Part shown: in pieces, positions 2-14,476 of the stretch | How the letters are laid out: each line of letters opens with the position of its first letter | Position numbering within the stretch: the stretch's first letter is position 1 | Position numbers and translations under genes: made by a program | Source: Gemmatimonas sp. | GTDB lineage: Bacteria; Gemmatimonadota; Gemmatimonadetes; Gemmatimonadales; Gemmatimonadaceae | Direction: 5' to 3' | DNA: 64,000 nt | Assembly (NCBI GenBank): GCA_965279375.1 | Contig: OZ257156.1 | Location: forward strand, 2,048,001-2,112,000 | The notes under the pieces: generated by a model | What the model saw: only the letters and a program-made list of their open reading frames with translations | The model's database searches: none | Told to the model about the DNA's origin: nothing

Positions 2-712
2 ACGGTCACACCGACGGGCGTGTCGGCGCTGCCTGCGGTGACCACGAACAGCACGGGCACCTACACGGTTACGAATGTGCCTGCGGGTGGCGGTGCGCTT
101 GCGCTCGCGTCGTTGCCGACTGGATGCACGCCTCCCGCGAGCCTGACGTACAGCGGACTCACGGCGGGCGGATCACTCACGAGAGACCTCGTGCTGAACT
201 GCGTGGCCGGACCGCACACCTATCCGGTGACGGCCACGTGGGGAGCGGTCACGACAGGCGGCCCGACAGGTCGTCAGGTGACGCTTACGATCGCTGTCGA
301 CATGGGTAGCGCACCCGGTCGACCGGATGTCGCTGGCAATGCAGCCGATCCGATGGCCGCCATCACGCTCGCGGTCGCGTACGACTCGACGAAGTTGGCC
401 TATCAATCCCGCACGCTGTTGTCGCCGAACGAGTTCGATCTGGGCATCGCCGGCACTGTCGCCGACACTATCCCCGCCAATGCTGGACAAAAGATCACCA
501 CCGTTGCAGTCGCGAGTTCGGCGGGCGTGGTGAAGACTGGTTCGTTCCAGCTTGTCAGGGTCCTGATGAACATCCGCACCGTGGGTGCTGGCACCGTTAC
601 TCCCACGCTCACGGTCAGACAAATGCTCGCGGACACTTTTGCTGCACCGCAGAAGAACGTGACCTCGAGCGTGGTGGTGCAGCCCATTCCGACATTGACG
701 ATTCCACCCTGA
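2..712 (+). CDS. 5'-truncated surface protein: Cys-bracketed Ig-like module plus C-terminal cohesin-like domain; paralog of 1320-3116
   Basis: Frame is open from the window edge (TVTPTGVSALP...). Shares motifs with 1320-3116: LPxGC...RDxVxxC, AV(D/N)MGSAPG, FDLGIAGTV, NVTSS. Cohesin-like segment AAITLAVAYDSTKLAYQS. Confidence 0.75.
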   Translation, partial: TVTPTGVSALPAVTTNSTGTYTVTNVPAGGGALALASLPTGCTPPASLTYSGLTAGGSLTRDLVLNCVAGPHTYPVTATWGAVTTGGPTGRQVTLTIAVDMGSAPGRPDVAGNAADPMAAITLAVAYDSTKLAYQSRTLLSPNEFDLGIAGTVADTIPANAGQKITTVAVASSAGVVKTGSFQLVRVLMNIRTVGAGTVTPTLTVRQMLADTFAAPQKNVTSSVVVQPIPTLTIPP

Positions 713-814
713 TGAATGACGACGCGGCGCGATGTTGCGTCGCACGTGGTGTCGTGACACAGAACCGATCGTGGCGCGTTGCGAGTATCGCAGTGCGCCA
801 CGATTCGCGTTTGA

Positions 815-958
815 TGTATCGACAGCTGTGTCGCGCTCTGCATCGGTCTCAGCGTCGACATTCAAAGTGAACGATGCATCGGCAATTGTATCGACGACTG
901 CATCGCGAATTGTATCGAGCATTGTATCGACCGTTGCATCGACATCGCGATCGCATGC
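815..958. repeat. Degenerate 12-bp tandem repeat, about 12 units, consensus TGYATCGnnnnn
   Basis: Units read directly, e.g. tgtatcgacagc, tgcatcggtctc, tgcatcggcaat, tgtatcgacgac, tgcatcgcgaat, tgtatcgagcat, tgtatcgaccgt, tgcatcgacatc. Confidence 0.8.
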
Positions 959-1094
959 GCATGCAACATCGTGTTCGACCGTGCGCGTGCGAACCTGTAA
1001 CATCTGCAGAGGGCCGATCTTTGATACAGAAGAAAGGTTTGGTTTGTGACAGGGGTCTCCGATGATAGGGCCGTTGGTCCCCCCCTGGTCTTTC

Positions 1095-1210
1095 CGCACG
1101 AGCGCACGACAACGGCAAAGCTGACGAAAGTCAGCGACGCAAAACCACGAAGCTACCGCGCAAACACTTCTTGATTCTCGACAGCAATGCGTTGCGCATT
1201 GTGGTCGCAA
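1095..1210 (+). ncRNA. c-di-GMP-I (GEMM-I)-like riboswitch aptamer
   Basis: GGCAAA-GCTGAC-GAAA-GTCAGC-GACGCAAAACCAC at 1114-1148 matches the GEMM P2 signature (GCAAA, stem with GNRA loop, GACGCAAA). ACCAC can pair with GTGGT at 1201-1205. The 3' half is atypical. Confidence 0.6.
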
Positions 1211-1319
1211 TCATCGCCCTCAGGGCAACACCGCTTTGCGCCATGCTGGTCGGGTCACCGAACGAACGAGCTGGAACGGACCTCTTGCTAACACCAATCG
1301 CGTAAGAGGTTTTCTCCAC

Positions 1320-3116
1320 ATGCAAAGTTTTGCGAACATTGGTCGCCGCGTTTCGGCGTTGACCGCCCTCCTCGCACTCGGCGCGTGCGCCGAGCAGAAT
1401 GCTCCAGCTCCTGTCGCGCCTGTGCTTCCGGGCGTCTCGGCGATTCCGACGCAGTATCGCGGCGCCGCGTTCATCATGGACGTGAGCTCGACGCGCAAGA
1501 CGGTGCGCATCACCGCGCCGTCCTCGAGCATCAACTCGCGCCTGAATCCGAACGTGCTCTCCGGCGACGCGAACTACTCGCTGCTCGGCGGTGACGCCAT
1601 CGAACTGGTCACCAGCAACTTCCAGGCTGGTGCACTTGGTGCCGTGGCGCCGAACAAGATCCTGATCACGTTCGACATGCAGATCCTCAACAAGCTCGCG
1701 GGTCTGCGCCTCGACACGCCGACGTTCCCGACTCCGCCGTCTGGCGTCACGGGTGTGCAGGCGTTCCCGTTTGAAATCAGCGTCACCAGCTCTGCCGGCA
1801 GCGTCGGCTCGAGCGGCAATGAAGTCGTCGTGACCACCCCGCGTGGTGGTGTGGTGGAGCCCAGCAGCGATTGGGGCAACCTGCCCCTCGGCGATGGCAA
1901 CAACCACAACTTCTTCAACGATGTTGGTTGCACGGCCACGTCGAACGATTGCTTCCGCTACGAGCCGTTCGCCGCTGTTGGACCGTCGGGCACGTCCGCC
2001 GCGCAGCGCGTCGGCTTCCTGATCGATCCGACCGTTGGTGACTTCCGCGCGAAGATCATCGTTGCGGCCGATCTTGCCCCGGCCGTTGCTGCGGCCCCGG
2101 GCACGGTTGACGGCACGGTGACGTCCAACATCGGCCCGGTCTCCGGCGCCACGATCTCGGTGACGGGTGGCTTCACGGGCACGTCCAGCGCGACGGGCAC
2201 GTACTCCATCGGCAGCGTCACGTCGGGCCCGAACAAGACGGTCTCGATCTCGAACCTCCCGGCTGGTTGCACGGCGAACCAGGCCTCGTTCAACAACCTG
2301 ACCGTTCCGGCGGCTGGTACGCTCACGCAGAACTTCGTCCTCACGTGCGCTGTCCCGACGGGCGGCATCACGGGCACGATCACGAAGCAGCAGGACGGTT
2401 CCGCGCTGGTCGGTGTCAGCGTCGTTGTGACGCCGAACGCTGGCGCCGCGCTCGCCGCTGTGACGACGGCCGCCAATGGTGGCTACAACCGCTCGGCCGT
2501 GCCGACGATCCCGAACAACGGCACGATCACGCTGTCGAACCTGCCCGCTGGTTGCGTCAACGCTGGCCCGTACACGTACACCGGCCTCACCACGGGTGGC
2601 CTGGTTCGCGACATCGTCGTGAGCTGCCCGCCGGCCCCGGTGACCTACGCGCTGACGGGCACGTGGACCACGACCGGCTCGCTGCCAGGCACCCGCACGG
2701 CTCGCCTGACGTTCGCCGTCAACATGGGCTCGGCCCCGGGTAACCCGACGATCAACGGCACCGCCGCTGACGAACTCGCCGGCATCACGATCGGCGCGAA
2801 CTACAACGGCACGCAGCTCACGTTCGCCAACCGCAGCGGCCTGCTCGATCCGCCGTTCGACCTCGGCATCGCCGGCACGGTCGGTGGTGGCACGGCCAAC
2901 GCGACGACGACGATTGCCGTCACGTCCGGCAGCGGCGGCACGCAGGCGGGCGCGTTCACGCTCGTCTCGCTGAACTTCACCATCCCGGCTGGCGTCGCGA
3001 GCGGCACGTCGATCACGCCGACCATCACCGTCAACCAGGCTCTGGCCGGTGTCGGTGGCGCGAGCAACGTGACGTCGAGCTTCACGGTCAGCGTCCCGGC
3101 CCTGATCGTCCCGTAA
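1320..3116 (+). CDS. Lipoprotein with two Cys-bracketed Ig/carboxypeptidase-regulatory-like modules and a C-terminal cohesin-like domain
   Basis: AAGAGG RBS upstream of ATG 1320; lipobox LLALGA-C; Thr/Gly/Asn-rich; two GTVT/GTIT...NLPAGC...C repeats; C-terminal LAGITIGANYNGTQLTF...LVSLNFTI; strong GC3 codon bias. Confidence 0.85.
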   Translation: MQSFANIGRRVSALTALLALGACAEQNAPAPVAPVLPGVSAIPTQYRGAAFIMDVSSTRKTVRITAPSSSINSRLNPNVLSGDANYSLLGGDAIELVTSNFQAGALGAVAPNKILITFDMQILNKLAGLRLDTPTFPTPPSGVTGVQAFPFEISVTSSAGSVGSSGNEVVVTTPRGGVVEPSSDWGNLPLGDGNNHNFFNDVGCTATSNDCFRYEPFAAVGPSGTSAAQRVGFLIDPTVGDFRAKIIVAADLAPAVAAAPGTVDGTVTSNIGPVSGATISVTGGFTGTSSATGTYSIGSVTSGPNKTVSISNLPAGCTANQASFNNLTVPAAGTLTQNFVLTCAVPTGGITGTITKQQDGSALVGVSVVVTPNAGAALAAVTTAANGGYNRSAVPTIPNNGTITLSNLPAGCVNAGPYTYTGLTTGGLVRDIVVSCPPAPVTYALTGTWTTTGSLPGTRTARLTFAVNMGSAPGNPTINGTAADELAGITIGANYNGTQLTFANRSGLLDPPFDLGIAGTVGGGTANATTTIAVTSGSGGTQAGAFTLVSLNFTIPAGVASGTSITPTITVNQALAGVGGASNVTSSFTVSVPALIVP

Positions 3117-3132
3117 CGACTCTAGATCCGAC

Positions 3133-3165
3133 GCCTGGGCTGGCGCGACATGCGCCAGCCCAGGC
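3133..3165 (+). promoter_or_regulatory. Perfect 14-bp intergenic stem-loop without a U-tract (mRNA stabiliser or attenuator)
   Basis: gcctgggctggcgc-gacat-gcgccagcccaggc between co-oriented genes. Confidence 0.6.
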
Positions 3166-3198
3166 TACGGTCCCCCTCATATTTCGGAGACACACCTC

Positions 3199-5496
3199 AT
3201 GAAGGGCTTTACTTTCCGGGGCGCCACGATCGGTCTGGCGTCGCTCGGACTTTTGGCTGCCTGCGACCGGAGCGAGATGCCCAGCGCGCCTGCGGCGCCG
3301 CTGGCCGCCCGCTCCAACCTGGCGCTCGAAGTCTCGAGCCTCACCGCCCGTACTGGTGACACGGTCGCCGTCGCGCTTGCGAACGGCACCGGCCTCGAAG
3401 TCGGTGGCGTGCAGGGCACGCTCCGCTTCGACCCGTCGCAGCTGCGCTACCTCGGCCAGCTTCGCGATGGCTCGAGCGAGCAGATCATGATGATCAACGC
3501 CAAGGACGCCGCCCGCGGCGAACTGCAGCTCGTCGTCGCCGACGGCAAGGGCATCGATCACAGCCAGCCCGTGCTCTTCGCCGTGGTCAACAACGGCTAT
3601 TCCGCCGGTCTCGACTTCGACGTGATCGACGCGACGCTCAACAGCTCCCCGGTTGCGCGCGTCAAGATGTCGGTGGAAGACGGTGTGCAGGTCAACGGTG
3701 CGCTGGCCCACTCGGGCACGCCGTCGACGATGTCGCTGCAGGATTGGAAGCAGGCGCTGGGTGGTGACGTCTCGCGCGATCCGGGCGAAGTCCGCAACGG
3801 ACTCGTGTTCGGCGATACCGATTTCAGCGGCGCGCTCGACCTCGTCGACGCGCTGTACGTGATCAACGTGCTCGTCGGCAACGCCGAAATCATCGTCGGC
3901 ACCGACGGCTCGGGCCCGAGCGGCGATCGTGACGGCGTGGTGGCCGCCAACGTGCAGCCGTTCAACCTGCCGGGTCTCGGCGAAGTTGGCGACGCGACTC
4001 CCCCGGGCCTCGAGCCCGATGGCACGCGTCAGATCGCACTCGATGACGCGCTCGCGATCATCAACGAGTTCGTGGGTAACAACCAGTCCGTGGTCGGCGA
4101 AATCATCCCGGGCCGTCCGGCTGCGCCGGCGACCAACCGCGTGCTCGTCGGTGACCCGGCGGTCGGAACGACCAACATCACGACGAACACCACGTGGACG
4201 AAGAACAACATCTACGAGCTGATCAACGAAGTCGTGGTGACCGGTGGCGCGACGCTGACCATCGAGGCCGGCACGCTCATCGAAGGCCGTCAGGGCCAGG
4301 TCGTTGGTGGTGTCTCTCAGGACGGCTCGGCGCTGTACATCGCGCGTGACGGCAAGATCAACGCGGTGGGCACCCCGTTCGAGCCGATCGTCTTCACCTG
4401 CAAGGGTGCCAAGTCGAAGGGCTGCTGGGGCGGCATCTCCATCCTCGGCAACGCCTCGAACAACCGCTCCGGCACTGCGACGAGCCCGGTCATCGCGGGC
4501 CGCGCGCCGACGGGTGGCTGCCTCGAGACGGCGTCGGAAGGCCGCACCGCGAAGCTCTACGGTGGCTGCAACGACGACGATGACAGCGGCACCCTGCGCT
4601 ATGCGCGCATCGAGTACGCCGGCTTCCGCTTCACGGCCACGAATGAGCTGAACGGCCTGGCGCTGTACGGCGTGGGCCGCGGCACGACGCTCGACCACAT
4701 TCAGGTGCACGCCGGCCTGGACGACGGCATCGAGTTCTTCGGTGGCACGGTGAACGCCAAGTTCCTCTATCTCACGGCCAACTCGGACGACTCGTTCGAC
4801 TTCACCGAGTCGTTCACGGGCAACGTGCAGTTCGTCGTCGTCCAGCAGGACTCGCTCGATTCGGACAAGGGTCTCGAGATGGACAACAACAACGTGAGCG
4901 TTGCACTGCACAGCACGACGCCGCGCTCGGCGCCGAAGCTGTACAACTTCACGGTCGTTGGTAAGCAGTTCGTGACCAGCACGTCGGGCGCCGCCGGCAA
5001 CAACTCCGTGGGCGGTCTGCACGCGCGCGTTGGCGCCCTGCCGAAGATGTTCAACTTCATCGTCCAGAACTTCCCGTTTGCGCTCGACCTGGACGACGCG
5101 GCCACCGGCGACAACTGCGGCACGGCCACGGGCCTGCAGCTGACGAACTCGATCTTCGTGCAGAACACGCGTCTGGACGCGTCCGACACCGGCGATCCGG
5201 CCACGTGCGGCGCTGACGAAGCGGCGTTCATCAGCAACCCGGCCTACAACAACACGACGACGGGTTCGAGCCCGCTCATCAGCCCGCTCAACGTGCTGGT
5301 GCCGGACTTCCGTCCGGCGTTCGGCTCGGCTACGGGCGGTGTCGCCCCGCCGGCGAGCCCGGTTGGCGCTCCGGCTGGCTTCTACGACGTCACCGCCACG
5401 TACATCGGCGCCGTGAAGCCTGCAGAAGCGACGAAGAACAACATCCCGTGGTACGCTGGCTGGACCCGCGGCTGGGCCACCGCTTCCACTCCGTGA
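3199..5496 (+). CDS. Lipoprotein: cohesin-like domain, dockerin-like duplicated Ca-binding motif, and C-terminal beta-helix-like domain
   Basis: GGAG RBS; lipobox LLAA-C; GDTVAVAL...VGGVQGTLRFDPSQLRY (cohesin-like); FGDTDFSGALDLVDALYVINVLVG and PDGTRQIALDDALAIINEFVG (dockerin-like pair); DDSGTLRYARIEYAG...NELNGL...DDGIEFFGG, a motif set I recall from uncharacterised surface lipoproteins. Confidence 0.85.
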   Translation: MKGFTFRGATIGLASLGLLAACDRSEMPSAPAAPLAARSNLALEVSSLTARTGDTVAVALANGTGLEVGGVQGTLRFDPSQLRYLGQLRDGSSEQIMMINAKDAARGELQLVVADGKGIDHSQPVLFAVVNNGYSAGLDFDVIDATLNSSPVARVKMSVEDGVQVNGALAHSGTPSTMSLQDWKQALGGDVSRDPGEVRNGLVFGDTDFSGALDLVDALYVINVLVGNAEIIVGTDGSGPSGDRDGVVAANVQPFNLPGLGEVGDATPPGLEPDGTRQIALDDALAIINEFVGNNQSVVGEIIPGRPAAPATNRVLVGDPAVGTTNITTNTTWTKNNIYELINEVVVTGGATLTIEAGTLIEGRQGQVVGGVSQDGSALYIARDGKINAVGTPFEPIVFTCKGAKSKGCWGGISILGNASNNRSGTATSPVIAGRAPTGGCLETASEGRTAKLYGGCNDDDDSGTLRYARIEYAGFRFTATNELNGLALYGVGRGTTLDHIQVHAGLDDGIEFFGGTVNAKFLYLTANSDDSFDFTESFTGNVQFVVVQQDSLDSDKGLEMDNNNVSVALHSTTPRSAPKLYNFTVVGKQFVTSTSGAAGNNSVGGLHARVGALPKMFNFIVQNFPFALDLDDAATGDNCGTATGLQLTNSIFVQNTRLDASDTGDPATCGADEAAFISNPAYNNTTTGSSPLISPLNVLVPDFRPAFGSATGGVAPPASPVGAPAGFYDVTATYIGAVKPAEATKNNIPWYAGWTRGWATASTP

Positions 5497-5505
5497 CCTG
5501 ATTCA

Positions 5506-5552
5506 TACACAGTCTACGGAGACGGCGAGTCGTCGTCTCCGTAGACTATGTA
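5506..5552 (+). terminator. Long (~22-bp) hairpin after the cohesin-dockerin gene; terminator or stabiliser
   Basis: tacacagtctacggagacggcg / cgtcgtctccgtagactatgta inverted repeat with one mismatch and one G-U pair; no clear U-tract. Confidence 0.55.
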
Positions 5553-5631
5553 GATCGACGCGTGTTGCGGGGGGGCGCCATCTGGCGCTTCCCCGTTTCG
5601 CGTCTCCCGACGACTGGTCTCCAGATCCCTC

Positions 5632-6963
5632 ATGTCCTCGTCGCTCCGCCGCCTGTTGGCGCGACTCGCGCTCCCCGCGCTCACCGTTGTCACCGTCGCC
5701 AGCTGCGTTACCGACGCTGCCACCGGTCCGACGCGTCAGCCGCCGTACCTCGCGATTCTCATCAACGTCGATGCGCCGAAGGAGCTGGCCACCGGCGGTC
5801 CGTACACGTTTCGCGTTCGTGAGCTCTCTGGCACGATCAAGTTCGACACGACCTTCCGCGCGTCCGTCCGCGACACGGTGATCATTCCCGTCACGGCGGC
5901 CACGTACCGCGTCGACATTTCCGACGTGCCGGCCACCTGCGGCGTGCGTGACGGCAACGCACAAGCGATCGTGGTGCCGCCCAACACGAACACATCACTC
6001 ATTCGCTTCTCGCTGACGTGTTCTGCGTCGCTCGTGGTGGCCGCCGCCGTCGACGGCTTCGGGATCGATTCCGAGTTCGTGGTGACCGTACAGGACAGCG
6101 CTGGCAAGGAGATTGGTGCCATTCTGCCGGCCAATGACACGATTCGACTCGAAGGAATCGCAGCGGGTCGCTACGATGTGACGCTGCGCCACGTGGCCGA
6201 TAACTGCGTCGTCATCAGCGATGGCGGACTCGTAGTGCCGGTCACGATCCGTCCGTCCGGTGGGGCCTTTGTGCCCTTCCGCGTGATCTGCTCAGAGGTA
6301 GCCAAGCGTCCGCGCATCACGCTGCTCGCCGGCACGTACGCGGACGGGTCGATCGGGTATGTGATTCGAGCGGCAGATCCGGACCGTGACGTGGAACGCA
6401 CCTTCGTGGACGTCACCGATTGCAATCAACGCTCGGTGCTCCCCGGCGGCGGACGACGACGTGGCGCATTCGGTGGCTGGCCGAACGTGACCGGTCGCGA
6501 CACGGCGGTGATCATGGGGGCGTACGATCTCAACGTCTCCGACTCACTCTTCACCAATCGCTGCCTCGGCGCGTGGGTGGCCGACAGCCGTGGCAACACC
6601 TCTGCCTTCGTCGAGATTCCGCTCAGGCGCAGCGATGTCGCGCGTCGACCCGTCGTGAGCGCCTTCAACGGGCGGCTGAACGGCACCAAAAGCATCTTCG
6701 TCGATCTGACCGTGCGCGATCCGGACAACGACTTCGTGGGCCTCTTCACCGTCTATCTCGTGCGCGACGGTGTGCTGAGTGCGTCCGACGGCGTGCCAGA
6801 CCGCGTCGTCTTTCAGCCGGCGGGTGTGCTAGGCAACACCGTGCCTGAATTCCTCGTCAACATCGGCTTTGGCAATTGGAACGACTACTTGGGCGTCGTG
6901 CTCTATGCCTTTGACCGTGCGGGCAACTTCACCCGCATGCAGGACCTGACGCTCGAGTTCTGA
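5632..6963 (+). CDS. Hypothetical lipoprotein with four Ig-like modules
   Basis: Lipobox VAS-C; two YxVxxxxVxxxCxV...FxxxC modules and two modules with DPDxD...DxxGN motifs. Confidence 0.8.
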   Translation: MSSSLRRLLARLALPALTVVTVASCVTDAATGPTRQPPYLAILINVDAPKELATGGPYTFRVRELSGTIKFDTTFRASVRDTVIIPVTAATYRVDISDVPATCGVRDGNAQAIVVPPNTNTSLIRFSLTCSASLVVAAAVDGFGIDSEFVVTVQDSAGKEIGAILPANDTIRLEGIAAGRYDVTLRHVADNCVVISDGGLVVPVTIRPSGGAFVPFRVICSEVAKRPRITLLAGTYADGSIGYVIRAADPDRDVERTFVDVTDCNQRSVLPGGGRRRGAFGGWPNVTGRDTAVIMGAYDLNVSDSLFTNRCLGAWVADSRGNTSAFVEIPLRRSDVARRPVVSAFNGRLNGTKSIFVDLTVRDPDNDFVGLFTVYLVRDGVLSASDGVPDRVVFQPAGVLGNTVPEFLVNIGFGNWNDYLGVVLYAFDRAGNFTRMQDLTLEF

Positions 6964-6978
6964 GTCTGCAGGCGATGG

Positions 6979-8748
6979 TTAGCGAAGTCGGGCGAGATAC
7001 GCGCGCGCGCCGGCAAACGCGACCGGTCCGCCGCTCTCGCTGCGCATGCGGAACGTAAAGGCGCTCGAGCCGGCCGGTCGCGACAACAGGAAGTAGTTGC
7101 CCGAACCTGAGGCGGACTGTGTGGTGACTTCCGTCGGCAAGGTGGTCATGCGCAGCGGGAACACGCCGCCGTTCAGACCGGACATCGCGTCGCGCATCGC
7201 CCACGACGTGAACTGATAACGCGAGGCGAGCCCCGGGCTCGTGGTATCGCCGACCGCCGAGATCAGAAATCCGGGGAGGATCTCGGAAAAGCTCACGCGT
7301 GCTCTGGCCTCGAGGTTTGCCACATCCACCTGAGGACCCGAGACGAGCGCTCGCGTGAACGTGCTCGGTGTGGTACCTGCGTACTGATCGATCGAGTAGC
7401 GCAGCAGTGCCCACGCCGCGCCGCGCGGTGCGAGGTCGGAGATCGCCTTGCGGCTGATGGGTGAAGCCAGATCGGGGCGATTCATCCATGCGCGGAGCCG
7501 AATCAGGTTCTGCTTGAAGAACGATTCGTAATCGTCGAGATCGATGAGGACGTCGTTGAACGTCAACCGCCTCGTGACGGCGAACCCGCGCACATTCCGG
7601 CCCACGAGTTCTTCTGCAAGATGCGACAGCCCCTCGTTCATCCAGTCCGTCTCGAGCGCCACGCCAAGTCGTTGCCGCACGCCTTGATTGATCAGGTGCT
7701 GGAGCTCATGCGCGACCGTCGCACGCATGGCGCGGAACACCGTGGAAACCGTGAATCGGTTGCCGTTCACCAGGCCGTTGGGATCTGGGGTGAGCAGGTA
7801 CATGATTTCCTGCTCATTGCTCGCCGGGCAGGCGAAGCCCTGCGTGGAGACGGCGCGAGGCAGCAGGTCGGGTGACCAGAAGTACCCGCCCACGTAGCCC
7901 AGAGACCCGGCCGGCGTCAGGCGATTGATCGCCGGCGTGAAGAGCAGCACCACGCGACCATCACCGTTGATGTCGGTGGGTTCGCCAAACCACTGCACAT
8001 CCGTCGGGTGCACCACGGCGTCATACTCGCTCGCGATCGCGGAGAAATCCGCTGCGGTGAATCCATTCGGCGGCGCTGCAACATCCTGCACGATCAGGGC
8101 GCGCGTGCTGATGGCACGCACGACGGCCCGTACGGTGCTGAAGTTGTTGCACATGTTCGAAGACGAGGCGTCGCCGACGCGATAGGACAGCGTATCGCCG
8201 ACCGCGACGGCGGCGACTGCGGCCGCGGACACATTGCGTCTGCCCGCGGCTGCGAGCGCGCCGACATCGTGTCCGGCCAACAGTCGCCGCGTGGCTTCGT
8301 GGCGGCGCGCTTCTTCACGCGCGGCGAGGCCAAGCGCGTCCGTGGACACCGCAGTGTTGCTCGCATCGAGGTCATTCTGCGTGCGCTGCAAGCGCGACGT
8401 CAGCGCGCCCGCTCCCTGCTCGCCTGTCACGCGATATGTCTGCAGCTCATCCTGCGTCGACGCGGCGTTCGCCGCGATCAGCACGTACTCGGACGCGTCA
8501 GACGAGCCGGCGACGACGACGCAGCCAAGTGCGGCGCCCCCTTCCACCATCTGCACCTGTCCGCGGGTGAGCGTGCGCGGCGTGGCGCACGACGCCGGAA
8601 CGACCGGGGGCGCTGTCTGGTCGCCACACGCCGTCAGCATCGCGCCGGCTACTGCGACCACGCCTCGCAAGATCCGGTCATGAGCGAGCCGAAACGGTCG
8701 ACGTATCGGGCCGCCGGGTGCCGTGTATTGCGTAGCAGTGTCACTCAT
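6979..8748 (-). CDS. Zinc metallopeptidase lipoprotein (M30/hyicolysin-like)
   Basis: AHELQHLIN followed by WMNEGLSHLAEE; DINGDGRV motif; lipobox MLTA-C; true start may be further downstream. Confidence 0.8.
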   Translation of the reverse strand: MSDTATQYTAPGGPIRRPFRLAHDRILRGVVAVAGAMLTACGDQTAPPVVPASCATPRTLTRGQVQMVEGGAALGCVVVAGSSDASEYVLIAANAASTQDELQTYRVTGEQGAGALTSRLQRTQNDLDASNTAVSTDALGLAAREEARRHEATRRLLAGHDVGALAAAGRRNVSAAAVAAVAVGDTLSYRVGDASSSNMCNNFSTVRAVVRAISTRALIVQDVAAPPNGFTAADFSAIASEYDAVVHPTDVQWFGEPTDINGDGRVVLLFTPAINRLTPAGSLGYVGGYFWSPDLLPRAVSTQGFACPASNEQEIMYLLTPDPNGLVNGNRFTVSTVFRAMRATVAHELQHLINQGVRQRLGVALETDWMNEGLSHLAEELVGRNVRGFAVTRRLTFNDVLIDLDDYESFFKQNLIRLRAWMNRPDLASPISRKAISDLAPRGAAWALLRYSIDQYAGTTPSTFTRALVSGPQVDVANLEARARVSFSEILPGFLISAVGDTTSPGLASRYQFTSWAMRDAMSGLNGGVFPLRMTTLPTEVTTQSASGSGNYFLLSRPAGSSAFTFRMRSESGGPVAFAGARAYLARLR

Positions 8749-8960: not shown

Positions 8961-9167
8961 TTACGCTGCGCTCGCGTCGATCTCTTCGATGCGGACATGT
9001 GGAAATCGCGCCGTGGTGGCAGCGTGCTCGATCGTCATGCTGACGAGATTGCCGTGTTTGTCCAGGTCGACGTACACGTTCTCTGTAATCTCGCGCGTCT
9101 CCTCGACGATTTCGTCGGAGAATTGCAGCAGTGCCGTGTCCGTGTCTTTGAAGTATTTGACGTTCAT
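8961..9167 (-). CDS. DUF2283-family small acidic protein (putative antitoxin)
   Basis: MNVKYFKDTDTALLQF...VYVDLDKHGNLVSMTIEHA, a typical DUF2283 pattern; ATGA overlap with the upstream gene. Confidence 0.85.
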   Translation of the reverse strand: MNVKYFKDTDTALLQFSDEIVEETREITENVYVDLDKHGNLVSMTIEHAATTARFPHVRIEEIDASAA

Positions 9168-9400
9168 GGCGTGAACCTGCGGTCGAAAAATGCGTTGTGT
9201 ATGGTCTCGCCGTCGGGCAACAGGACAACGCGGAGGTAGCGGCGCTCTGCTGGAATGTATGCCCAGCGTCGGATTCGACCATCCCCTTGCACGGCCTCCG
9301 CCAGAGGTTGCGTCACGGCGAGGAGAATCCACTCGTCGATAATGCGATCACGATCGGGCCGTCGCCGAACGTGCTGGAAGTAATCGGTGACCCTGAGAAT
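9164..9400 (-). CDS. Putative toxin partner of DUF2283 (78 aa), no ATG/GTG/TTG start; probable ATT start
   Basis: Manual translation: (I)LRVTDYFQHVRRRPDRDRIIDEWILLAVTQPLAEAVQGDGRIRRWAYIPAERRYLRVVLLPDGETIHNAFFDRRFTP*; GGAG 7 nt before ATT; stop overlaps the DUF2283 ATG. Absent from the ORF track. Confidence 0.75.
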   Translation of the reverse strand: MLRVTDYFQHVRRRPDRDRIIDEWILLAVTQPLAEAVQGDGRIRRWAYIPAERRYLRVVLLPDGETIHNAFFDRRFTP

Positions 9401-9438
9401 GGTTCGGCTCCGGTTACGGCTGTGCGCGGACCCGTTCT

Positions 9439-9876
9439 CTAGATCGCCGAGATGAGTTCGAACGCATCGGTGCCGTTGGCAATCGCGTCCGTCGGAATGC
9501 GCCTGTCGAACGTGGCGAGTTTCGCGTGGTGCTGTTGCGCGAGTCGCAGCAGGTAGATGTCCGTGAGTGTCGATGGCGTGAGTCGCTCCGGCCTGATCAC
9601 GCTGTCGTCGAGCAGCGTGATGTCGTCGGCCACGAACACATGGCGTGTGTGCTGCGTGAACTCGCGCAGCAGTTCGCGGACCGCGCTGACGGTGCCAAGC
9701 GAATTCGGATACGACGGGAGCCCCGCGATACGCAGCACGCCGTTTTGTACGATGGGGCAGGTGAGCCAGTGCGTGTCACCGCTCGATTCGGCCCAGCGAT
9801 GCGCGGCGTCGTGGAACACGTGTCGCGGGTCGAGGAGGGCCAGCACGACATTCACGTCCAGCAGGAAGCGTGTCAT
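9439..9876 (-). CDS. vapC: PIN-domain ribonuclease toxin (VapC family)
   Basis: LLDVNVVLAL...H...LTDIYLLRLA...LATFDRRI PIN motifs. Confidence 0.9.
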   Translation of the reverse strand: MTRFLLDVNVVLALLDPRHVFHDAAHRWAESSGDTHWLTCPIVQNGVLRIAGLPSYPNSLGTVSAVRELLREFTQHTRHVFVADDITLLDDSVIRPERLTPSTLTDIYLLRLAQQHHAKLATFDRRIPTDAIANGTDAFELISAI

Positions 9877-10308: not shown

Positions 10309-12540
10309 ATGACCAGTCTGCCCTTGGGATCGCCCGCGACACCCGCTCCGGCCACCGCCGAACTCGCCCCCGACACCGTCCGCCGCCTGCGTGAGCTGGC
10401 CGCCCGTTGGGCCGACGTCGGCGCGGCCGAGCGCGCCAACTACCAGCTCTACCTCATCGAGCTGTGCGACGCGATCGGCGTCCCCCGCCCGAAGCCGGCC
10501 GCGACCGGCGACCGGGTCGCCGACAGCTCCGCGTACCAGTTCGAGTTCGCGATCAAAACCACCACGCGCGACGGGGCGATCGCCACGAACTACATCGATC
10601 TGTACAAGGCGGGGTGCTTTGCGCTGGAGGCGAAGGACTCCGACGACGGGACCACGACCACAAGATTGCTGACCAAGGCCTTTGGGCAGGTGTCCAACTA
10701 CGCCAAGGATCTGCCGGAGCGTCCGCCGTACATCATCGTGCTGGATGTCGGTAAGACGATGATTGTGTGGGATCGCTGGTCGGGGTCGTACGGCGGCTAC
10801 CACCTGGGCACGCGCATCGACCTGCGTGCGCTGGACTCCAGTGCCTCTAACGTTGCGTTGCTGCGCGACATCTGGACCGAACCGGCGGTGCGCGACCCTC
10901 GGCGGCACGCACAAAAAATCACGGTGGAGATTGCGGGGCTGCTGGCCGAACTCGCGGCCACACTCGAACAGCGCGGACACGATCCGGAACGCGTGGCGCG
11001 GTTTCTGATTCGTTGCGTGTTCTCGATGTTTGCCGAAGACGTGAAGCTGTTGCCCGACGCGTCGTTCAAGAATCTGCTGCACGCCGTTGCCGACGGTGGC
11101 CCCGATGCGTTTGTGGAGGCCGCCCAGGATCTATGGAGAGCAATGGATGTGGGCGGACGCTTTGGTTATCACCGCCTGCTGCGCTTCAACGGCCATTTCT
11201 TTGCCAACGCCGAGGCGTTGCCGCTCGAGCGTGCCGAACTAGAGCTGTTGCGCCGTGCGGCAGACGCTGACTGGAGCGCGGTCGAGCCGTCGATCTTTGG
11301 TACGCTGCTCGTTCGTGCACTCTCGGCCGAAGAACGGCACCGGCTGGGCGCGGAGTACACGCCGCGTGATTTCATCGAGCGGCTGGTGCGGCCGACGGTG
11401 GAAGAGCCTGTGCGCGAGCGGTGGACGGCGGTGCAGGCGGAGGTGCTGCAGCTGCGCGAGCGCGCACGACCCACGGATATTCGCGCGGCTGAAACGCGAC
11501 TGCTGGAGTTTCACGCGTGGCTACGTGGACTGCAGATTCTCGATCCGGCGTGCGGGAGCGGCAACTTTCTGTACGTGACGATGCATGCGCTCAAGCGCGT
11601 GGAAGTGGAAGTGTTCCGCTTGCTGGCCGACGTGCAGGGCGGGCAGACGAGCGTGCGCATGGCGGAGATCGATCCGGGGCAGTTTCACGGTATCGAGGTG
11701 AAGGCGTGGGCGCGCGAAATCGCCGAGCTGACGTTGTGGATTGGCTTCCATCAGTTCTGGCGGCAGCAGCATGGTGATGTACAGCCTGACGAACCGTTGC
11801 TGCGCGACACGGGCACGCTGGAGCATCGCGACGCCGTGCTGGCGTGGGACAGCATTCGGCATGTGCCGGAGAAGGACCGGCCGGACCCGACGCCGCGCAT
11901 TGTGCATCCGGTAACGGGGCAGTTGGTGCCGGATCCGAACGCGAAGCTCAAGTACATGGAGTACGTGGGGGCCAGAGCGGCTGAGTGGCCGCAGGCGGAT
12001 TTCATTGTGGGGAATCCGCCGTATTTGGGTAATAAGCGAATGCGCGAGGCGTTTGGCGACGGGTATGTCGATGCGCTGCGTGGCGCGTACTCGGACGTTC
12101 CGGATAGCATCGACTTCGTGATGTACTGGTGGGTTCGTGCAGCGCGCGAGGTCGCCGTTCGTCGGACGATTCGTGCGGGACTGATCACGACCAATTCTAT
12201 CACGCAGACCTTTCATCAGCCGCTTCTTGCCGAAGCCGCGAGCATAGGTGCTCAGATCGTCTGGGCCGCTCCGGATCATCCTTGGGCAGATGGATCAGAT
12301 GCTGCTGCGGTTCGAGTCGCGATGACTGTACTCGCGCGTGGAATCACATTCGCTACAAGGGTCGACGTGGACGAGCGCGGAGCTGTCGTTCTCTCGCGTC
12401 AAGTCTCGCGGTTGAACTCAGACCTGTCCGCGGACGCCGACGTGCCAACCGCGGCAAGTGTTCCGCTGCGGTCGAATGGTGGATGCTCTTGTCGTGGAGT
12501 GACGCTTGTTGGTGCCGGCTTCCTAATTGACCGCAGATGA
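10309..12540 (+). CDS. MmeI-like type IIL restriction-modification enzyme, N-terminal part (PD-ExK nuclease, helical spacer, N6-adenine MTase); ends at a frameshift
   Basis: YIDLYKAGCFALEAK nuclease motif; FNGHFF; GAEYTPR; LDPACGSGNFL (motif I); IVGNPPY (motif IV); DFVMYWW; GLITTNSITQ. Confidence 0.9.
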   Translation: MTSLPLGSPATPAPATAELAPDTVRRLRELAARWADVGAAERANYQLYLIELCDAIGVPRPKPAATGDRVADSSAYQFEFAIKTTTRDGAIATNYIDLYKAGCFALEAKDSDDGTTTTRLLTKAFGQVSNYAKDLPERPPYIIVLDVGKTMIVWDRWSGSYGGYHLGTRIDLRALDSSASNVALLRDIWTEPAVRDPRRHAQKITVEIAGLLAELAATLEQRGHDPERVARFLIRCVFSMFAEDVKLLPDASFKNLLHAVADGGPDAFVEAAQDLWRAMDVGGRFGYHRLLRFNGHFFANAEALPLERAELELLRRAADADWSAVEPSIFGTLLVRALSAEERHRLGAEYTPRDFIERLVRPTVEEPVRERWTAVQAEVLQLRERARPTDIRAAETRLLEFHAWLRGLQILDPACGSGNFLYVTMHALKRVEVEVFRLLADVQGGQTSVRMAEIDPGQFHGIEVKAWAREIAELTLWIGFHQFWRQQHGDVQPDEPLLRDTGTLEHRDAVLAWDSIRHVPEKDRPDPTPRIVHPVTGQLVPDPNAKLKYMEYVGARAAEWPQADFIVGNPPYLGNKRMREAFGDGYVDALRGAYSDVPDSIDFVMYWWVRAAREVAVRRTIRAGLITTNSITQTFHQPLLAEAASIGAQIVWAAPDHPWADGSDAAAVRVAMTVLARGITFATRVDVDERGAVVLSRQVSRLNSDLSADADVPTAASVPLRSNGGCSCRGVTLVGAGFLIDRR

Positions 12541-13687
12541 AGCGTCGTCGCTCGTAAGGTCTGATCCAAGCAACTCAGAGGTGATCCGTGCCTATAGAAA
12601 TGGACGTGACCTCATGGCGCGAGGAAGAGACGTATACGTCATCGATTTTGCAATGAAGTCGGAAAACGAGGCACGTCACTTCGCTGTGCCCTTTGACTTG
12701 GTGCGGTCACGAGTGAAGCCTGAACGCGACGGAATGCGCCGCGATTCACGGCGGAAGTACTGGTGGAGGTTCGGCGAACCCAATCCGAAACTTCGGAGGT
12801 TGGTGGCCGACTTGACTCGGTACATCGCGACGCCCTATGTGGCAAAGCATCGCCCCTTCATGTTCTTGGATGCTCGAACCGCACCGGACGACAAAGTAGT
12901 AGTGGTTGGCTCAGACCAAGCATGGATTCTCGGTGTGCTCTCTTCCGCGATTCATGGTGGGTGGGCGCTGGCTGCAGGCTCACTTCTCGAGGATCGACCG
13001 ACCTACAACAATCCACGCTGCTTCGACCCCTTCCCCTTCCCCGACCCTCCCGCCGCTCTCCGCGCACAAATCGCCACCCTCGCCGAGTCCCTCGACGCAC
13101 ACCGCGCCGCCGCCATCGCGCGTGACGAACGCGTCACCATGACCGGCATGTACAACGTCGTCGAGAAGCTCCGCTCCGGCGACCAGCTCACACCCAAAGA
13201 ACGCACCGTCCACGAACTCGCGGCCTGCGGCATTCTGCGCGACATGCACGATCAACTCGACGCGCTCGTCGCCGAGGCGTACGGATGGTCGTGGCCGCTC
13301 TCCACGGAGGAGATTCTCGACAAGCTCGTCGCGCTGCACGACGTGCGCGTGGCCGAGGAGGCGCAGGGGATCGTGCGCTGGCTGCGTCCGGAGTTTCAGG
13401 CGCCGCAGTCGGCTATGGCTGCTCCCGTCGCTGAACTGGCGCTGACAACCAACGTGAGCGCCGCTGCTGCTGTCGCCGAGCCCACGCCTTGGCCGGCGCA
13501 GGCCATCGAACAGATCTCGGCGCTCAAGCGTCTCGTCACCACACACACCCTGAGCGTCGACGATGCCATGCAGCAGTTCAGCGGCGCCAGACGCGAGCTT
13601 GTGGAGCGGCATCTGGAAACGCTCGCCATTCTGGGCGAGGTGCGCGTGGTGGAATCGGGGCGGTACAGCGCGGTGGCAGCGTTCTGA
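12527..13687 (+). CDS. MmeI-like enzyme C-terminal part (target-recognition and C-terminal domains), out of frame with the upstream part
   Basis: IRAYRNGRDL, VKPERD, WWRFGEP, RYIATPYVAKHRPF, GVLSSAIHGGW, RCFDPFPFP, TMTGMYNVVEKLR; TTG start with no RBS. Confidence 0.8.
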   Translation: MTADEASSLVRSDPSNSEVIRAYRNGRDLMARGRDVYVIDFAMKSENEARHFAVPFDLVRSRVKPERDGMRRDSRRKYWWRFGEPNPKLRRLVADLTRYIATPYVAKHRPFMFLDARTAPDDKVVVVGSDQAWILGVLSSAIHGGWALAAGSLLEDRPTYNNPRCFDPFPFPDPPAALRAQIATLAESLDAHRAAAIARDERVTMTGMYNVVEKLRSGDQLTPKERTVHELAACGILRDMHDQLDALVAEAYGWSWPLSTEEILDKLVALHDVRVAEEAQGIVRWLRPEFQAPQSAMAAPVAELALTTNVSAAAAVAEPTPWPAQAIEQISALKRLVTTHTLSVDDAMQQFSGARRELVERHLETLAILGEVRVVESGRYSAVAAF

Positions 13688-13808: not shown

Positions 13809-14099
13809 ATGCCAGACGAATACTCCATCTACGACGCCAAAGCCAAGCTCTCCGCGCTCGTGCGGCAGGTGCGCGAAGGGCAGACCTTCGTGATCACCGT
13901 CCACGGCGAGCCGGTAGCCGAACTGCGTCCGATCGAAAAGCCCGAGCGCAAACAGACGCTCGAGGAGCGTGTCGCGGAGCTGACCGCCCGCGGCGAGATC
14001 ACGCCGTCCAAGCTCAAGCCTGGTGAGCGGCCGAGCTTCCCCATCGGATCGACGCACATACCCGGTGCGTTGCAGCGCTTTCTGGACGAGCGCGATTGA
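13809..14099 (+). CDS. Phd/YefM-family antitoxin
   Basis: YSIYDAKAKLSALVRQVREGQTFVITVHGEPVAELRP. Confidence 0.9.
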   Translation: MPDEYSIYDAKAKLSALVRQVREGQTFVITVHGEPVAELRPIEKPERKQTLEERVAELTARGEITPSKLKPGERPSFPIGSTHIPGALQRFLDERD

Positions 14100-14476
14100 G
14101 GAGCGCATTCGTCGATACGTCGGCGCTCCTGTCATTGGCACTGGCTGAGGTGACCGCGGTGGAAGTTGGTGGTCGGCTTGCTGTGTTCGACCGTGTTCGA
14201 GCATCGGATCTGCTTGTGGCGGAACTCAGGAGCGCCTGCAAGCGTGACGGAATCGCTGTTGACCAACGGTTGATCGACAGTCTGGACGTGGTATTGCCGC
14301 GGCGATCGCTCGGCCCGGAAATCGCCCGCGTCCTCGACGTTGGCTACGTGCGTGGCGCCGACTGCTGGCATCTGGCGACGGCGCTGTATCTCGCGCCCGA
14401 TCCCGCCGAACTCACCTTCCTCACGCTCGACCTGCGACAACGCGACGTCGCCCGGGCGCTAGGCTTCATGGTCTGA
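14096..14476 (+). CDS. vapC: PIN-domain toxin (VapC family)
   Basis: FVDTSALL...E...RGADCWHLATA...FLTLDLRQ; TTGA overlap with the antitoxin stop. Confidence 0.87.
   Translation: MRSAFVDTSALLSLALAEVTAVEVGGRLAVFDRVRASDLLVAELRSACKRDGIAVDQRLIDSLDVVLPRRSLGPEIARVLDVGYVRGADCWHLATALYLAPDPAELTFLTLDLRQRDVARALGFMV

Follow-up and report, generated by a model that had tools for sequence, protein, structure and literature searches.

Here we report the analysis of a candidate cohesin-dockerin lipoprotein operon in the genome of Gemmatimonas sp. (GenBank assembly GCA_965279375.1, contig OZ257156.1), whose cohesins and dockerin are probably cognate partners. The window, i.e., the whole stretch of 64,000 nucleotides that was analyzed (positions 2,048,001 to 2,112,000 of the contig, a single one of 5.31 Mb), opens inside this operon. 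The gene order is TonB receptor-g1-g2-g3-g4 plus a peptidase gene (g5), with the receptor gene and most of g1 located upstream of the window (Table 1). An earlier note on this DNA, made from the sequence alone, had described four co-oriented genes, and these were recovered as four open reading frames (ORFs) on the forward strand; g1 is truncated by the window edge only, as its complete ORF is present in the upstream DNA. Lipobox-like cysteines, which the note had read in three genes, were found by eye at all four N-termini including that of full-length g1. On this reading g1-g4 are predicted lipoproteins, and their exposure at the cell surface is assumed by likeness to the ElpS and FII lipoproteins. 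The absence of glycoside hydrolases from the cluster also held, since neither a glycoside hydrolase nor a carbohydrate-binding module (CBM) family was matched in the Pfam scan of the window and upstream proteins. The note had overlooked the ElpS/FII-like beta-helix that makes up most of g3 and a cyclic di-GMP (c-di-GMP) riboswitch of class I in front of g2, and it lacked the context of the TonB receptor gene heading the operon.

Table 1. Features of the candidate cohesin-dockerin operon, in positions of the window.
Feature	Positions	Strand	Basis
g1 3' end (1024-aa predicted lipoprotein with two cohesins, one of them internal and upstream of the window)	2..712	+	
g1 C-terminal cohesin-like domain; ~50% identity to the g2 cohesin	212..709	+	profile
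Six tandem 12-bp units TGYATCG-N5	875..946	+	
c-di-GMP-I riboswitch aptamer RF01051	1104..1262	+	62.3 bits
Predicted hairpin in which the g2 Shine-Dalgarno-like AAGAGG is paired; may act as a translational expression platform	1272..1318	+	
g2, 598-aa predicted lipoprotein	1320..3116	+	
g2 N-terminal domain, residues ~50-255	1467..2084	+	
g2 cohesin, residues 441-598	2640..3113	+	model
g3, 765-aa predicted lipoprotein: cohesin - dockerin - beta-helix	3199..5496	+	
g3 cohesin, residues 34-165	3298..3693	+	model
g3 dockerin, residues 202-295	3802..4083	+	model
g3 pectate-lyase-like beta-helix PF28492, residues 320-765	4156..5493	+	profile, ElpS/FII-like by gene context
g4, 443-aa predicted lipoprotein without match to a known family	5632..6963	+	
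g5, HExxH metallopeptidase-like predicted lipoprotein, convergent with g4	6979..8748	-	

The earlier note had proposed that g1 and g2 end in a cohesin-like domain and that g3 carries both a cohesin-like and a dockerin-like module, and it had made these assignments depend on the predicted folds. The cohesin folds in g2 and g3 and the dockerin fold in g3 are supported by predicted models. The g2 model, built from 92 sequences with a mean predicted local distance difference test score (pLDDT) of 85, comprises an N-terminal beta domain, two transthyretin/CnaB-like stalk domains (residues 258-438), and a C-terminal domain that matches the cohesin 6kgc_A with Z 14.4 and a root-mean-square deviation (rmsd) of 2.2 over 134 aligned residues. 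The model of g3 residues 34-309 was built from 30 sequences (pLDDT 77, predicted template modeling score (pTM) 0.76). Its first domain matches cohesins, which fill all of the top 17 rows (Z 12.8, rmsd 2.6, 121 aligned), and its second one matches the dockerin 2ccl_B over 62/62 residues (Z 7.3, rmsd 1.6 A), as well as 5m2o_B and 4fl4_A; the position of this dockerin agrees with the 3805-4083 given in the note. The predicted dockerin has two symmetric helices, a canonical first Ca loop (Ca residues D, D/N/T, D/S/N, D/T/N/S, D), and a second loop that is split by an insertion of ~20 residues. Asp occupies positions 1 and 12 of repeat 1 in 30/30 homologues, while repeat 2 has Asn at position 1 and Asp at position 12, again in 30/30.

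The Pfam check that the note had suggested (PF00963 for cohesin, PF00404 for Dockerin_1) gave no call above the cut-off in the window proteins. Pfam at E<=1 identified neither domain in the four complete ORFs of the window, and NCBIfam made no such call on the window proteins. The PF00963 model gives g3 15.7 bits against a cut-off of 24.1, which is the sole, sub-threshold cohesin match of the genome, and none in g2; it weakly matches 13/30 homologues (best E 2.7e-6). Similarly, g3 is absent from the nine PF00404 matches of the genome at E<=1, with weak matches in 7/30 homologues. Sequence searches against PDB returned weak matches only (E 0.19-0.5).

The full-length g1 protein contains FN3 and Ig-like domains, the internal cohesin, a PKD domain, three CarboxypepD_reg stalks, and the C-terminal cohesin. 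A profile of the g2 cohesin recovers both g1 cohesins (E 4e-38 and 6e-9), and up to three in g1 proteins of relatives. The N-terminal head domain of g2 is conserved and present five times in the genome; matches in whole-model fold searches did not reach this domain, which is no sign of a novel fold. The four head-domain paralogues elsewhere in the genome (L001:3070-5778, L003:9507-11066, L002:11780-12880) comprise two stand-alone copies and two with a cohesin, and they show weak codon bias where it was computed. The acidic motifs of the g3 beta-helix are invariant in 15/15 sequences. A TTG at 1236 was rejected as the g2 start because it lies within the riboswitch aptamer and the homologues start at the ATG at 1320.

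A dockerin is described as binding its cohesin in one of two alternative orientations. The elements of this recognition, dockerin positions 10/11 and the 8-3-6-5 face of the cohesin, are established (PMC8063739; PMC12484212). We compared the two dockerin repeats in 129 aligned representatives, of which 115 are gap-free at the compared sites. The same residue is present in both repeats at position 10 in 82/115 (shuffled mean 32, maximum 46) and at position 11 in 64/115 (shuffled mean 22, maximum 37). Concerted variation was also detected at positions 9, 13, 14, 17, and 18, and none at positions 15, 16, and 19 of these representatives; the recognition residues thus have the internal symmetry of a dockerin with a dual binding mode.

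Covariation between the two modules was analyzed in 153 of 158 sequences, retained once near-duplicates had been removed. The strongest signals fall on cohesin strands 3, 5, 6, and 8 and appear twice, once per dockerin repeat (G70-L215/L281, G69-L219/L285, V112-A218/A284, D144-V216/D282), the covarying residues of the g3 cohesin being G69, G70, I96, V112, A114, and D144. In the 96 sequences containing all three domains, the two best cohesin-dockerin pairs (z 9.8 and 7.4) exceed every control, namely helix-dockerin pairs (maximum 4.7), cohesin-helix pairs (maximum 6.3), and six shuffles (4.1-5.9). A post hoc comparison at the G70-equivalent position across 22 loci extends this signal to the other proteins. 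In g2 cohesins this residue is Gly in 14/16 loci where dockerin position 10 is L/I/V and in 0/5 where it is G/T; the corresponding counts are 13/14 and 0/3 for the internal g1 cohesins, and 12/16 and 1/6 for the cohesin of g3 itself. Since the dockerin repeats vary in concert and covary with the 8-3-6-5 face, and since the g2 and internal g1 cohesins track the same dockerin residue, cohesin-dockerin binding in the operon is likely. A complex prediction for the g2 cohesin with the g3 dockerin scored 0.03 against a mark of 0.32, with an uncertain fold of the partner, and was counted neither way.

The gap between g1 and g2 contains an RF01051 aptamer that scores 62.3 bits (gathering threshold 35), ends 58 nt before the g2 start, and carries a 74-nt insertion in the loop of its second stem. 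It is the only c-di-GMP-I riboswitch of the genome, which has 18 GGDEF matches. Its alignment places G at the equivalent of Vc2 position 20 and C at 92. The riboswitch directly precedes g2 in 6/7 genus genomes that have g3; across the six operon copies, position 20 carries G in this one and three more and A in two (L011:12115-12272 and L171, genomes G028 and G325). A20 marks variants that bind cyclic AMP-GMP (c-AMP-GMP; PMC6140456), which suggests a switch of ligand within one genus. A folding prediction gives a hairpin that pairs the Shine-Dalgarno-like AAGAGG of g2. The genes g2 and g3 are likely under c-di-GMP control via this riboswitch. Upstream of the aptamer, the six-unit TGYATCG-N5 array is the only array of at least three such units in the genome, and no such array was found in 13 related g1-g2 gaps. 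A scan for sigma-70 promoters and terminators found nothing on the + strand.

Across the genus, c-di-GMP-I riboswitches were found in 53/87 genomes. At 10/11 other riboswitch loci, the downstream ORF reads by eye as an exported protein or lipoprotein gene, and those at L175-L184 precede Big_2-type or other exported proteins; at L174, no ORF passed the filter. Several of the latter loci adjoin genes that, by eye, are of polysaccharide type (Wzc-like, glycosyltransferase, NfrB-like).

The strong codon bias that the earlier note had seen in g2 and g3 was borne out: by the effective number of codons (ENC), they rank in the lowest 0.3% and 0.5%, respectively, of 1558 long ORFs. The receptor gene, g1, and g4 have average ENC. 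As codon bias within the operon also peaks in g2 and g3 in 12/13 relatives, both proteins are likely abundant.

From these data, we find it somewhat probable that the operon encodes a riboswitch-tuned, abundant array of Ca-dependent, lipid-anchored oligomers that displays the beta-helix and is partly linked by g1 to the receptor. At the outer membrane, the one dockerin that g3 has would clip into cohesins on g2, on g1, and on further g3 molecules. Each g3 would thus offer one plug and one socket, each g2 one socket on a stalk, and each g1 two sockets, giving one dockerin against four cohesins in the operon. Because g3 has one dockerin and binds one socket, the products would be dimers of g3 with g2 and short chains in which g3 molecules join head to tail and g2 or g1 forms the cap. 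A two-dimensional mesh would need a further contact; hence, of the earlier proposal of membrane-anchored docking lipoproteins in a diderm bacterium, the docking part is backed by predicted folds and covariation, while the cross-linked mesh is not supported by a single dockerin. Along such chains, the acidic beta-helix and the head domain of g2 would be presented in many copies. The g1 protein, which would be low-copy and is encoded right next to the receptor gene, may tie some chains to the receptor, and captured substrate could then be passed to the channel; g3 and the receptor seem to descend from a receptor-lipoprotein pair of the ElpS/FII type, for which such a transfer might be expected. 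Levels of g2 and g3 would be set by the riboswitch in response to cyclic di-GMP.

Several observations weigh against this reading. The third and later covarying pairs (z 4.5-5.8) are within the control range. The G70 comparison concerns a single position chosen after the covariation table had been seen, and its loci are kin rather than independent, the five small-residue loci coming from four genera. The C-terminal g1 cohesins, including the one that the note had seen in the window and that the profile recovers as a cohesin, do not follow the dockerin residue (Gly 4/12), in contrast to the internal one. The dockerin is modeled with a pLDDT of only ~70-80 for its helices, and its inserted loops stay below 50. 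On the regulatory side, the predicted Shine-Dalgarno hairpin is unchanged with or without a locked aptamer in equilibrium folding, which does not give the ON/OFF direction, and 12 operon loci outside the genus gave no match to the riboswitch, which is therefore not a defining part of the operon. Given the average codon bias of the receptor gene and g1, most g2 and g3 molecules cannot be receptor-bound. Finally, covariation inside g3 cannot separate binding in cis from binding in trans, and the pTM of the joined cohesin-dockerin model is compatible with a closed intramolecular clasp. The latter points bear on an alternative that we regard as quite improbable, i.e., that the g3 cohesin and dockerin form a closed, Ca-stabilized intramolecular stalk, with the cohesin folds of g1 and g2 serving as mere Ig-like spacers. 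It would fit the constant N-terminal placement of the cohesin-dockerin cassette, which 130 of the 150 best representatives show, with a beta-helix behind it in 95, other cargo in 10, and fragmentary ends in 25. A fixed tether, however, should need no two symmetric helices, yet the repeats change together and both covary with the cohesin, and the cohesins of g2 and the internal ones of g1 also vary in step with the dockerin residue.

The extreme codon bias and the riboswitch would also suit an adhesive or protective coat, in which g2 and g3 build a lattice resembling a surface layer (S-layer), with a second contact via the g2 head or the beta-helix, dockerin cross-links, and c-di-GMP switching along with the sessile state. 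The g2 stalk domains match pilin and adhesin domains in fold searches, and the head domain, found in 14/250 family genomes, shares 13 of them with g3. We nevertheless consider such a coat unlikely: no self-association interface was found, the head domain has no fold assignment, cohesin-dockerin bonds alone could not form a lattice, and the receptor gene is always in the operon.

The receptor is TIGR01782-like (E 1e-68, below the cut-off). It is not of the SusC type, as TIGR04056 gives 37.6 bits against a cut-off of 368 (E 8e-10) and matches the N-terminal part only, and no SusD/tetratricopeptide repeat (TPR) lid family was found among the proteins of the cluster and its upstream neighbors. A pectin-lyase-fold lipoprotein gene lies near a TonB receptor gene, three genes downstream of it. 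We surveyed the g3-type beta-helix family in 78 loci of the best matches listed, across many phyla. Among these, the same receptor type occurs within 8 kb of the helix gene in 67/78, a PhoB-like gene in 24/78, pst/phoU/ppx in 9/78, and the order helix-receptor-gspE/F in 6/78. The literature describes the gene orders elpS-cc0171-gsp in Caulobacter (PMC2996285) and phoB-receptor-FII in Flavobacterium (fjoh_0544-0546; PMC8115612), and reports ElpS and the FI/FII lipoproteins as highly abundant at the surface under phosphorus limitation. As the beta-helix loci share these orders, we infer that the g3 helix is ElpS/FII-like, from gene order and not from alignment.

The same gene orders and pho links make it possible, though doubtful, that the operon encodes a stoichiometric phosphorus-scavenging transporter complex derived from an ElpS/FII-type pair, in which cohesin contacts keep g3 and g4, along with the peptidase, at the channel and the riboswitch is a local add-on. 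One full related operon (L061) is directly followed by PhoB; the other related operon loci that were checked have no pho genes nearby. In addition, the genome has a separate receptor-lipoprotein pair in its phoBR-pstSCAB-phoU-ppx-ppk cluster (L004:3275-20000; about 4561300-4578000), with a receptor only 36% identical to that of the operon. In a FastTree tree, which gave long-branch warnings and was used for the grouping of g3 helices only, the 17 helices from cohesin-dockerin proteins form one group; its neighbors are the five RCC1-fused helices, and the pho-cluster pair lies on a different branch. No convincing pho box was detected before g2 or the receptor gene (best 5/14 mismatches), although the E. 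coli-type consensus makes this a weak test. In the pho cluster, the receptor and lipoprotein genes are both strongly codon-biased, unlike the cohesin-dockerin operon, where only g2 and g3 are.

The operon is conserved in Gemmatimonadota bacteria. The g3 cohesin-dockerin unit was identified in 14/250 family genomes and in 6/86 other genomes of the genus, and comprises 136 clusters at 50% identity (E<=1e-30). Named relatives of g2 and g3 are mostly from Gemmatimonas, Gemmatimonadaceae, or Gemmatimonadota. Among loci not cut by contig ends, the receptor-g1-g2-g3 order is present in all 17 related loci with enough flank, g4 follows g3 in 16/16, and the peptidase gene g5 is adjacent to g4 in 10/13. 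Further upstream of the window, the region with the receptor gene also contains a Big_2 lipoprotein gene and a beta-helix-RCC1 paralogue of g3, and, on the opposite strand, a cyclophilin gene and two g2 paralogues. Within the window, small toxin-antitoxin-like pairs at 9126-9876 and 13809-14476 (PIN/VapBC-like and Phd-like by eye) bracket a gene at 10309-13687 that resembles DNA methyltransferase genes and is divided between two overlapping frames.

A genome-wide inventory yielded only one further above-cut-off dockerin whose context is credible. That genomes with the operon might be rich in dockerin clients was rejected, as a canonical dockerin match (E<=1e-5) is present in 3/14 operon genomes versus 43/250 family genomes overall. 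A second cohesin-dockerin set is encoded at about 3449100-3454500 (L060:7114-12474). There, a Big_2 lipoprotein ends in a cohesin-like domain, a second lipoprotein consists of a cohesin on its own, and a canonical dockerin is carried by a secreted beta-propeller protein; a TonB receptor comes next. Similar layouts are found in L015-L017. In six proteins, the g3-type cassette carries a subtilase (four) or RHS-repeat (two) cargo (P0217, P0221, P0248, P0249, P0254, P0258). An 1892-aa protein (L059:4779-10457, genome G154) begins with a g3-type cohesin and lacks a match to the g3-type dockerin. As a bolder proposal, which we put forward only tentatively, g2 and g3 may be subunits of an undescribed surface layer, in which head-to-tail cassette polymers are capped or cross-linked by g2 and nucleated by g1 at the TonB receptor. 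The riboswitch would switch this layer, with a ligand that may vary by species between c-di-GMP and c-AMP-GMP, and the cassette would serve as a transferable tag for surface display, subtilases and RHS proteins being further cargo.

Comparison with known systems shows which elements are shared. With the type I pairs and adaptor scaffoldins of cellulosomes (Clostridium thermocellum 2ccl/1ohz, C. acetobutylicum 6kgc, A. cellulolyticus ScaB/ScaC), the operon has in common the predicted nine-strand jelly-roll fold of the cohesins, the two-repeat dockerin (duplicated F-hand loop-helix motif) with symmetric helices, probable recognition at positions 10/11 versus the 8-3-6-5 face, and proteins with both modules. 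It differs in the diderm host, lipoprotein anchors instead of S-layer homology (SLH) or sortase attachment, the absence of CBM3 and glycoside hydrolases, the single dockerin gene, a second Ca loop split by ~20 residues, and the TonB receptor and riboswitch. It lacks what makes a cellulosome, a multi-cohesin scaffoldin recruiting many dockerin-bearing carbohydrate-active enzymes. The best structural matches of the g3 cohesin are the C. perfringens GH84C/NagJ (2w1n, 2jh2) and GH33 (2vo8) cohesins and that of Archaeoglobus fulgidus (2xdh), with Z 12.8, 12.0, and 11.1; they are weak sequence matches (E 0.19-0.25) and have no cellulose function. These non-cellulosomal cohesins are found on enzymes or small archaeal proteins, in monoderm or archaeal cells, and we know of none that forms a lipoprotein set around an outer-membrane transporter.

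The pectin-lyase-fold lipoprotein beside a TonB receptor is shared with ElpS/CC0171 of Caulobacter crescentus and with FI/FII/FIII and PUSIII/PUSIV of Flavobacterium johnsoniae; to these, the operon adds the cohesin-dockerin cassette of g3, three further lipoproteins, and the riboswitch, with no pho link detected at the locus. A TonB transporter with cognate surface lipoproteins is likewise typical for SusCD and PusCD1/2 of Bacteroidota, from which the operon differs by its TIGR01782-like receptor and the lack of a SusD/TPR lid in the cluster. PusCD1/2 was rejected as the family of this system, as PusD1/2 are SusD-derived (bioRxiv 10.64898/2026.09.03.749221). Compared with the c-di-GMP-I (GEMM-I) family RF01051, the operon aptamer has the G20 and C92 equivalents and is distinct in its 74-nt insertion and in the A20 of 2/6 operon copies. 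A literature search with most subscription journals outside its coverage found no published description of the combined operon. Each part has known relatives. The role of non-cellulosomal cohesins and dockerins is poorly understood, and the operon provides a natural example from a two-membrane bacterium that has one plug and several candidate sockets. The named recognition residues swap compensatorily between species (Leu-Gly vs Gly-Val), and specificity is therefore directly testable; new orthogonal pairs for protein display may result. In relation to the systems above, the operon connects the widespread, uncharacterized beta-helix family of ElpS/FII with an assembly of defined parts and provides a candidate c-di-GMP target in the little-studied Gemmatimonadota.

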